This document shows positions 29,240 to 30,036 of a DNA stretch of 64,000 nucleotides, piece after piece. The translations under genes were made by a program, and so were the position numbers. Position 1 is the stretch's first letter. The number at the start of each line of letters is the position of its first letter. The stretch lies in the sequence record MZ726791.1; one strand, 5' to 3'. Source of the DNA: Escherichia phage vB_EcoM_ASO1A. The notes under the pieces were generated by a model. The model saw only the letters and a list, made by a program, of their open reading frames with translations. It did not search any database and was not told where the DNA came from.

Positions 29240-29482
29240 ATGCAAACATTAACAGTAGTTGAACATGAAAACTGTGAGAATATTGAGTTTGTCAGGGTCA
29301 TTGGTGTTGAACACCACATTTTCTTAAAAGTAGGGTACTTATGTGACCCCGCTAGAGTAGAAAGATTTATACGTGATTGTTTTGGTGGTAGACAGCTAAA
29401 GAGTGTTATTTTTGAGACAGTTTTACCAGAAGGTTTAGAAACGAATAATAACATTTATCTCCTTACAAGGATTAGACGATGA
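29240..29482 (+). CDS. hypothetical protein encoded inside tRNA cluster
   Basis: 80-aa ORF with AGGTGA RBS immediately after tRNA-Arg. Confidence 0.45.
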   Translation: MQTLTVVEHENCENIEFVRVIGVEHHIFLKVGYLCDPARVERFIRDCFGGRQLKSVIFETVLPEGLETNNNIYLLTRIRR

Positions 29483-30036
29483 GATATTTAAAATATGCTT
29501 CATGGATTTTCCTAGCTTTGCTAGAACCATTAGCAGCAACCTTAGCAGTTATCTTAGCACCTTTCGTAGTTCCATTTTACAGTGAGAAGAAAGGCCACTT
29601 ACCTTTCGGATTTAGATGGATGGAGACATATGACAACCCAATTGATGGTGACGAAGGTCATATCGAACGATGGGCTAAGATTAGAAAGATTGGTAAGCTG
29701 GGTGTCTACATGCAGAGAGTCGGATGGCTCTGGAGAAACAAAGCTTATAACTTCTCTTACCATGTATTAGGAAGAGATGTAAAAGATGTTACTAAGTGGA
29801 AAGGTAATATCAACGTAAGTTCTGACCCTGAAGATAATCAGACAGGTTATCTCCTAATGTGGAACAGTAATGCTTGGGGATTATTCGCTTTTATCCCATC
29901 AATTAAAGTCTTTGGTAAACAATTTTACTGGAGAATTTATATTGGGTGGAAGCTAAAAAGTGTTGTCCCAGAAGAAAGAGCATTCTCAAGGGAAAGAGTT
30001 ATGTTGGCATTCTTTATTCATCCACTAAGAAAGTAA
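29479..30036 (+). CDS. membrane protein encoded inside tRNA cluster
   Basis: 185-aa ORF; N-terminal hydrophobic helices WIFLALLEPLAATLAVILAPFVVPF. Confidence 0.5.
   Translation: MRYLKYASWIFLALLEPLAATLAVILAPFVVPFYSEKKGHLPFGFRWMETYDNPIDGDEGHIERWAKIRKIGKLGVYMQRVGWLWRNKAYNFSYHVLGRDVKDVTKWKGNINVSSDPEDNQTGYLLMWNSNAWGLFAFIPSIKVFGKQFYWRIYIGWKLKSVVPEERAFSRERVMLAFFIHPLRK

Follow-up and report, generated by a model that had tools for sequence, protein, structure and literature searches.

Two protein genes within a Felixounavirus tRNA array: an accessory slot with three states and a predicted membrane-anchored DUF7338 protein

The 64,000-nucleotide (nt) stretch of Escherichia phage vB_EcoM_ASO1A DNA analyzed here (record MZ726791.1; hereafter the window) is from a Felixounavirus and carries an array of 25 transfer RNA (tRNA) genes, all on the + strand, at positions 26246–31397 (ARAGORN). 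Two open reading frames (ORFs), orf80 of 80 amino acids (aa) and orf185 of 185 aa, share one slot within this array. Comparison with related phages indicates that both are genuine genes, maintained by purifying selection, and that the slot is a hot spot of two separable accessory cassettes, which occurs in three states. The larger protein belongs to the family DUF7338 and is predicted to consist of one membrane helix and an alpha/beta domain.

The slot is bounded upstream by tRNA-Arg(ACG) (29147–29222, +; ARAGORN, with an Rfam tRNA score of 59.8 bits) and downstream by tRNA-Gln(TTG) (30045–30120, +; ARAGORN and Rfam), which begins 8 nt past the orf185 stop codon. The ORF listing places orf80 at 29240–29482 (+) and orf185 at 29479–30036 (+), as given in a preliminary description of this DNA, which had also credited each ORF with a plausible ribosome-binding site. 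Such sites were read from the sequence in both cases: a Shine-Dalgarno-like AAGGTG at 29229–29234 (+), 5 nt ahead of the orf80 ATG (29240), and a Shine-Dalgarno-like AAGGA at 29467–29471 (+), within the 3' end of orf80 and 7 nt before the orf185 ATG. The stop codon of orf80 and the start codon of orf185 overlap in an ATGA at 29479–29482 (+). The Rfam scan found only tRNAs around the two genes, with no match inside either.

By our estimate, an ORF of 185 codons would arise by chance in DNA of ~39% GC with a frequency of ~4e-6 per start, and the length of an 80-codon ORF is not in itself improbable, so the coding status of orf80 is judged from conservation and not from length. The median ratio of nonsynonymous to synonymous substitution rates (dN/dS) is 0.065 for orf185 (synonymous rate dS 0.25; 24 Felixounavirus loci) and 0.245 for orf80 (dS 0.66; Felixounavirus loci). 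Homologues of orf80 from Mooglevirus and Avunavirus, at 29–43% identity, keep a length of 75–80 aa and 14 invariant residues. Conservation in related genomes, which the preliminary description had named as a check, was thus observed for both ORFs. It is highly improbable that one or both are non-functional, whether as ORFs arisen by chance or as remnants in decay between the tRNAs. The unremarkable length of orf80, its absence from half of the close relatives and its poor AlphaFold2 model (predicted local distance difference test score, pLDDT, 60.5, from an 8-sequence alignment) would suit such an interpretation, but it is countered by the dN/dS values of both genes, by the features retained in the diverged orf80 homologues, by the ribosome-binding sites together with the coupled ATGA junction, and by the full-length membership of orf185 in a family with no fewer than 1532 clusters (90% identity).

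In the phage collection, 564 records hold an orf185 homologue and 69 an orf80 homologue. orf185 is present in all 24 Felixounavirus loci, with a constant offset to the tRNA-Gln(TTG) that follows it in every one; orf80 is present in 12, the other 12 having DUF7338 alone. Where orf80 is missing, tRNA-Arg(ACG) or tRNA-Leu(CAA) ends 19–20 nt before the orf185 ATG, which has an AAGAGG site of its own. Both genes are found in the window and in phage wV8, only DUF7338 in Bas63 (as bas63_0153) and Mushroom, and only an orf80 homologue, flush against tRNA-Gln, in the Mooglevirus phages Sf17 and ESh22. The DUF7338 profile, run against six frames of the whole Sf17 genome (90,092 bp), gave nothing at E ≤ 10, compared with 9e-76 in the window. 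Since the slot is seen with both genes, with DUF7338 alone and with orf80 alone, orf80 and orf185 appear to be separable cassettes. The earlier proposal that protein genes in the tRNA array are accessory is borne out by this separability, by the presence of orf80 in half of the loci and by the lack of DUF7338 in Sf17, but it fits less well with an orf185 that is found throughout the Felixounavirus loci and is strongly constrained.

Small ORFs and homing-endonuclease genes are known among phage tRNAs, as in T4 (tRNA.1–tRNA.4 and segB) and in T5-type arrays. The slot resembles these in holding protein genes among tRNAs in a plastic region that varies between close relatives, and the annotation of phage VR5 places homologues of Trna.2–Trna.4 beside its tRNAs. 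It differs in that segB-like ORFs encode a nuclease domain, whereas no GIY-YIG, HNH or LAGLIDADG domain was found in orf80 or orf185 with Pfam and PHROGs, and in that DUF7338 recurs at tRNAs over different phage families and is not lineage-specific. In one Felixounavirus locus (L028) the array also carries an inserted HNH gene.

The product of orf80 is a soluble protein with an isoelectric point (pI) of 6.3 and no hydrophobic segment. It matches PHROG 14202, a family without assigned function, over its full length (E = 3.6e-37, residues 1–79 on profile positions 1–75 of 76), and has no Pfam family match. The PHROG 14202/orf80 family comprises 7 clusters among 5.8 billion proteins, all Felixounavirus-like, with further homologues in Mooglevirus Sf17 and ESh22 and in Avunavirus Av-05. 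orf80 encodes a small, fast-evolving accessory protein that occurs only in Felixounavirus, Mooglevirus and Avunavirus.

Positions 28000–31500 of the window are 100% identical to Escherichia phage vB_EcoM_ASO1B, also a Felixounavirus (megablast), in which the identical genes ASO1B_046 (orf80) and ASO1B_047 (orf185) are annotated as hypothetical proteins, at an offset of 243 nt between the window and record MZ726792. Identity to that record is lower elsewhere, at 98.8% over 1–22049 and 95.2% over 21857–26257, and the alignments accordingly identify the window as a close mosaic relative of ASO1B. Both proteins are also encoded with 100% identity on two IMG/VR contigs (L012 and L013; tblastn). The genes and the family are therefore already public, with hundreds of relatives, and ORFs within phage tRNA arrays are a known phenomenon. 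On a limited literature search, the three-state slot, the cross-family linkage to tRNAs with signs of block transfer, the lack of a fold relative in the PDB and the case made below against a 'holin' label may be undescribed so far.

The orf185 protein and its family

orf185 matches the Pfam family DUF7338 (PF24027) with E = 4e-62 and 209.4 bits against a cut-off of 27, its residues 1–184 aligning to model positions 1–176 of 180, and phrog_2143 with E = 1e-80. All 28 aligned orf185 homologues also match DUF7338. The protein shares the ~180-aa single-domain architecture and the invariant motifs of DUF7338/PHROG 2143, with no difference from the family. The 120 best DUF7338 matches listed are 120–213 aa long, with PF24027 as their only precomputed Pfam domain. 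A fusion of DUF7338 to a tail-fiber domain (P0035) comes from a single 1.2-kb contig, is probably a chimera and was not used.

The hydropathy profile of orf185 contains a single hydrophobic segment at residues ~6–36 (Kyte-Doolittle 19-residue maximum 2.16), and the AlphaFold2 model (pLDDT 93.6, predicted template modeling score, pTM, 0.83) shows one helix at residues 2–33, short helices at 43–96 and a five-stranded sheet at 106–184. Hydropathy, model and alignments together place a predicted transmembrane helix at residues ~7–33, encoded at 29497–29577 (+). The membrane anchor expected from the preliminary description is retained, but as one helix and not the several it had proposed. Within the helix lie W9, an acidic residue (Asp/Glu) that is near-invariant at position 16, and an invariant P28. 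It is preceded by 6 residues in orf185 and by 0–10 in most homologues. The ~6 residues on the N-terminal side of the helix carry a net charge of +1.57 in the family, against +0.25 for the 15 residues after it, which are acidic in distant members. This charge difference favors an N-in/C-out topology, with a predicted periplasmic domain. The C-terminal domain is basic (pI ~9.8), and orf185 contains no cysteines.

The family motifs TxDN..DGD, WLWRN and GWK, together with the N-terminal hydrophobic helix, are all present in orf185. Over 40 DUF7338 sequences with identities down to 24%, nine columns are invariant; the invariant residues of the domain are T50, D52, W83, R86, N87, Y90, G156 and W157, and K158 is nearly invariant (≥90%). 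The constellation of T50, D52, R86, N87, Y90 and K158 suggests a ligand-binding or catalytic pocket. A Foldseek comparison of the orf185 model with 350,542 PDB chains gave no match (best E 0.6, TM-score < 0.2), and the BFVD set of predicted viral structures yielded only unannotated family members. Sequence searches of the PDB found no characterized relative (best E 0.12 and 0.6). The alpha/beta domain of DUF7338 is, on its AlphaFold2 model, a confidently predicted fold without a match among solved structures. Pfam, PHROGs and NCBIfam returned families without assigned function, or nothing, for either ORF, the PADLOC library of defense systems gave no match, and no papers on DUF7338 turned up in a literature search of a limited library. 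The role in superinfection exclusion or host takeover that had been suggested for these genes is not shown by any of the tools, which found no PADLOC match and only families without function. With its many clusters, unmatched predicted fold and invariant polar pocket, DUF7338 is a reasonable target for functional work.

Linkage to tRNA genes and expression

In a range of different phages, tRNA clusters contain or adjoin a close homologue of orf185 (55–86% identity). In Hafnia phage Zyzzx (Ounavirinae) the DUF7338 gene stands between tRNA-Asp and tRNA-Ser, and in Avunavirus Av-05 (Vequintavirinae) an orf80-like gene and the DUF7338 gene stand between tRNA-Gly and tRNA-Gln. A T4-like group with 18–19 tRNAs in the locus has the order tRNA-Phe, DUF7338 gene, ORF, tRNA-Met, and the gene is likewise in or next to a tRNA cluster on a 183-kb contig with Cronobacter phage S13 in its protein cluster. 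The gene is found just downstream of tRNA-Arg(TCT) in Dhakavirus and Gelderlandvirus, and 0.6–1 kb downstream of tRNA-Met in Pseudotevenvirus and Slopekvirus. Among the close homologues only one locus (L043) has no tRNA within 4 kb, a partial locus at the end of a contig (L039) being left out. No tRNA occurs within 4 kb of distant members (<45% identity), except in L060 with an opposite-strand tRNA-Ser 2.3 kb downstream; these members stand after tail fibers, near endolysins, or in early or replication modules, and one is an orphan in a Rhodocyclaceae metagenome-assembled genome. The replication-module and orphan settings fit a self-contained accessory function. Searches of PLSDB plasmids and of 5,426 complete E. 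coli genomes gave no match to the ORFs, indicating that DUF7338 is a virulent-phage gene in this host range.

The nucleotide homology between Av-05 and the window spans tRNA-Gly(TCC) (88%), the spacer (77%) and the DUF7338 gene (73%), which points to block transfer including a tRNA; the Av-05 orf80 homologue overlaps its DUF7338 gene as in the window. Between Zyzzx and the window, nucleotide homology is limited to the DUF7338 gene. The repeated position at tRNAs in unrelated phages seems best accounted for by transfer of the gene into tRNA blocks and along with them. We read the linkage as the mode of exchange of this subfamily, with the arrays as plastic regions that offer patches of shared homology, and not as proof of a tRNA-related function. 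The occurrence of DUF7338 at tRNAs in different families makes a case for tRNA arrays as exchange points of accessory genes.

The nearest strong upstream promoter candidate in the consensus scan is a sigma-70-like TTGACA-17-TATAGT with 11/12 matches at 27587–27615 (+), and the ASO1B record likewise lists a promoter at the corresponding site. Two further sigma-70-like sites lie ahead of the first tRNA (26099–26127 and 26190–26219), and a terminator-like hairpin with a T-run follows the last tRNA, tRNA-Cys, at 31560–31577 (+), where the unit of tRNAs and ORFs likely ends. With promoters upstream and a terminator-like site past the last tRNA, co-transcription of orf80 and orf185 with the tRNAs is plausible. 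The two genes would then be transcribed with the tRNAs from the host-type promoters at 26099, 26190 and 27587 up to 31560–31577, and their message would be cut from the tRNA precursor by tRNA-processing enzymes, as the upstream tRNA ends 17–20 nt before the first ATG and tRNA-Gln begins 8 nt past the stop. Where both genes are present, orf80 would be translationally coupled to orf185. Array-embedded ORFs of this kind are a case for studying the expression of protein messages inside tRNA precursors.

Candidate functions of orf185

In the explanation that we prefer, orf185 would begin with a short cytoplasmic N terminus and a single signal-anchor helix bearing the conserved acidic residue, and its ~150-aa alpha/beta domain, which is basic, would face the periplasm. 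After entering the inner membrane it would target a conserved component of the envelope and contribute to fitness without being essential, most likely through superinfection exclusion or envelope conditioning and not as a holin. The functional step is the weakest part of this explanation, and the whole chain, from cassette hot spot and tRNA-linked expression to an envelope-directed accessory orf185, is put forward tentatively, as a possibility to be taken seriously but one that we would not call probable. Several points weigh against it. Neither experiment nor homology ties orf185 to exclusion or envelope activity, and its universal presence in Felixounavirus with a dN/dS of 0.065 is more typical of a core function. 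The location of DUF7338 at the position of the holin gene t in Aeromonas phage Aeh1 and the endolysin neighbors of distant members favor a lysis role. Promoter-like sites are no more numerous in the region than expected from shuffled sequence, the topology of orf185 is a prediction, and the processing of messenger RNA (mRNA) at the tRNA ends is deduced from the spacing. Small envelope accessory proteins such as T4 Imm and Sp, T5 Llp and Cor are dispensable and are often encoded in plastic regions or after tail-fiber genes. Distant DUF7338 members likewise follow tail-fiber genes, a functional analogy, but orf185 has no homology to these proteins in Pfam, PHROG or PADLOC and no PDB fold match. 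A bolder version, which we consider doubtful, makes DUF7338 a new family of periplasm-facing effectors that shuttles between unrelated virulent phages (Ounavirinae, Vequintavirinae and several genera of Straboviridae), with tRNA genes serving it as portable homology arms and its mRNA being freed by RNase P and 3'-processing enzymes, comparable with mitochondrial 'tRNA punctuation'.

A few records label the DUF7338 gene 'holin'. The label was traced to CPT_Mushroom87 of Salmonella phage Mushroom, which is described as 'class-III holin, 1 TMD, N-in C-out' (TMD, transmembrane domain), and was copied by later records; a topology argument is its sole basis. The Felix O1 genome paper names five other holin candidates, a later paper from the annotation center behind the Mushroom record identified no holin in a Felix O1-like phage, and the literature holds no experimental identification of a holin in Felix O1-like phages, the papers giving candidates or none. 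The label is spreading in Felixounavirus and T4-like records, and engineers of these biocontrol phages should not trust it.

A role of orf185 as holin of Felixounavirus appears unlikely; in that reading it would be a class III-like, one-TMD protein that accumulates in the inner membrane and releases a soluble endolysin. The description in the source record agrees with the predicted one-TMD, N-in/C-out topology, a prediction that resembles the T4 holin T with its N-terminal TMD and large C-terminal domain exposed beyond the cytoplasm. The endolysin of Felixounavirus is soluble and no holin of the genus has been identified by experiment, tblastn with T gave no match in the window or in any locus, and a gene that is universal and constrained within the genus would suit such a function. 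In Aeh1, where T is not detectable (tblastn best E = 3), DUF7338 lies at the t position, between the tail-fiber genes and asiA and 1 nt upstream of the lysozyme gene e. Some environmental T4-like contigs likewise have DUF7338 at this position, after tail-fiber and tail-fiber-assembly genes, and endolysin is the commonest neighbor family of distant members, in three lineages. In contrast, orf185 is unrelated to T in sequence (hhalign probability 0.2% against T4 T), has no Pfam match besides DUF7338 at E ≤ 1–5, and resembles no solved structure in the Foldseek search, whose PDB set presumably contains the solved T structures. Its predicted cytoplasmic N terminus has just 6 residues compared with ~34 in T, in which a cytoplasmic N-terminal domain of ~30 residues is the RIII-binding region, and it further differs from T in lacking cysteines. 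Many T4-like phages, among them AV109 and UPEC01, carry DUF7338 together with bona fide T, and the family is absent from the syntenic sister genus, in which Mooglevirus Sf17 shares the lysin, the spanins and rIIA/B. Other members are found in replication modules, the endolysin of the L073 group has its own small two-TMD holin-like gene convergent to DUF7338, the annotation center that produced the label later named no holin, and the window contains a rival candidate with an N-terminal TMD at the end of the tail-fiber operon (54962–55333).

Homology between orf185 and T was rejected on the results of Pfam, Foldseek, hhalign and tblastn. The enrichment of endolysin neighbors was rejected as proof of a lysis function, as it comes from three lineages only, one of them convergent with its own holin-like gene. 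A holin would be needed wherever its cognate endolysin is used; by comparison, Sf17 lacks DUF7338 and the T4-like carriers have T. The asiA gene, sought beside the environmental T4-like homologues as confirmation of the t slot, was not found there.

A modulator of lysis, such as an antiholin, a lysis-inhibition sensor or a tethered periplasmic regulator or inhibitor of muramidase with a Spackle-like function, is another improbable role for orf185. The predicted periplasm-facing domain on a membrane anchor would suit it, as would the joint presence of DUF7338 and T in T4-like phages, the placing of the Tevenvirinae DUF7338 gene in the interval from the tRNAs to the e region (in STP4-a the endolysin lies three genes downstream of it, and in Aeh1 it immediately precedes e), the rIIA/rIIB genes in relatives of the window, and the conserved polar pocket, which hints at specific binding. 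It is opposed by the lack of homology to RI, RIII or Spackle and of any lysis family in Pfam, PHROGs and NCBIfam, by the lack of a PDB fold match, by the many DUF7338 members far from lysis genes and by the Felixounavirus endolysin being ~8 kb away on the other strand. Still less probable, and in our judgment very unlikely, is a functional link to tRNAs, in which orf185 would act on tRNA or RNA metabolism, tethered to the phage tRNAs or to a Ro60-like protein. Adjacency to tRNAs recurs in at least four phage groups, the C-terminal domain is basic, a Ro60-like gene lies directly upstream of the array and some distant members stand beside nucleases in replication modules. However, the domain is predicted to be periplasmic and thus away from RNA, distant members other than L060 lack nearby tRNAs, Sf17 retains the full array and the Ro60-like gene without DUF7338, and the flanking homology with Av-05 shows that linkage can come from co-transfer. 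An envelope-directed accessory function remains our preferred, though tentative, explanation for orf185.

Two further gene arrangements that bear on lysis were observed alongside. The 123-aa protein encoded at 54962–55333 (+), the last gene of the tail-fiber operon, carries a transmembrane segment at its N terminus and ends in a coiled-coil tail. It shares 90% identity with Sf17_gp55 ('putative holin'), matches PHROG 4038, a family without assigned function, and is kept in Felixounavirus and Mooglevirus; it is a better-placed holin candidate than orf185. In Aeh1 (L008; record positions 225658–226998) the t position holds DUF7338 (ORF319w), the lysozyme gene e and ORF321w, the last encoding 101 aa with a coiled-coil tail and, at the N terminus, a weak hydrophobic segment rich in glycine; these three genes may form an uncharacterized lysis cassette.

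Other features of the array and the window

Rfam adds a tRNA-like match at 27820–27898 (+) that ARAGORN missed (31.7 bits, gathering score 29), and a tRNA-Arg(TCT) is annotated at the equivalent place in Bas63, SLAM_phiST56 and Sf17, so the array probably has 26 members. The ASO1B record contains a 129-nt 'tRNA-Thr-GGT' at the place of window 27008–27136 (27251–27379 in MZ726792) that is unsupported by ARAGORN or Rfam. Other unannotated gaps in the array lie at 26909–27336, 27572–28140 and 28231–28484, and matches resembling transfer-messenger RNA fall below threshold at 27513–27818. A third protein gene of the array, at 30488–31222 (+) between tRNA-Phe and tRNA-Ser(GCT), encodes 244 aa of PHROG 2114 with weak coiled-coil-type matches to ZorA/MotA-like models, and is called a membrane protein in some relatives, including Sf17 (gp26).

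Directly upstream of the array, a 471-aa gene at 24665–26077 (+) matches PHROG 850, 'RNA-binding protein', with E = 2e-184. It appears to be the counterpart of Bas63 gp130, which according to the PhageMaP preprint is located directly upstream of the tRNA genes, is Ro60-like and counters the Ppl defense system; the preprint speculates that some of the 'tRNAs' are Y-RNA-like partners.

Three records assigned to other hosts, GU169904 (Staphylococcus phage SA1), MG065664 (Campylobacter phage A132) and OK283618 (Listeria phage LPML1), contain Ounavirinae tRNA-array sequence at 94–98% identity, those of SA1 and A132 matching the window and that of LPML1 matching locus L033 of Hafnia phage Zyzzx. These records have likely been contaminated or mis-assigned. 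The alignment of the window to ASO1B also brought up repeats of ~95–110 bp with 87–100% mutual identity, scattered over the early-gene region at 8078–14090 (+). Examples lie at 8533–8630, 10222–10319, 10772–10869, 11273–11370, 11904–11994, 12821–12931 and 13982–14090 (all +), and these repeats are probably repeated promoter/terminator cassettes.

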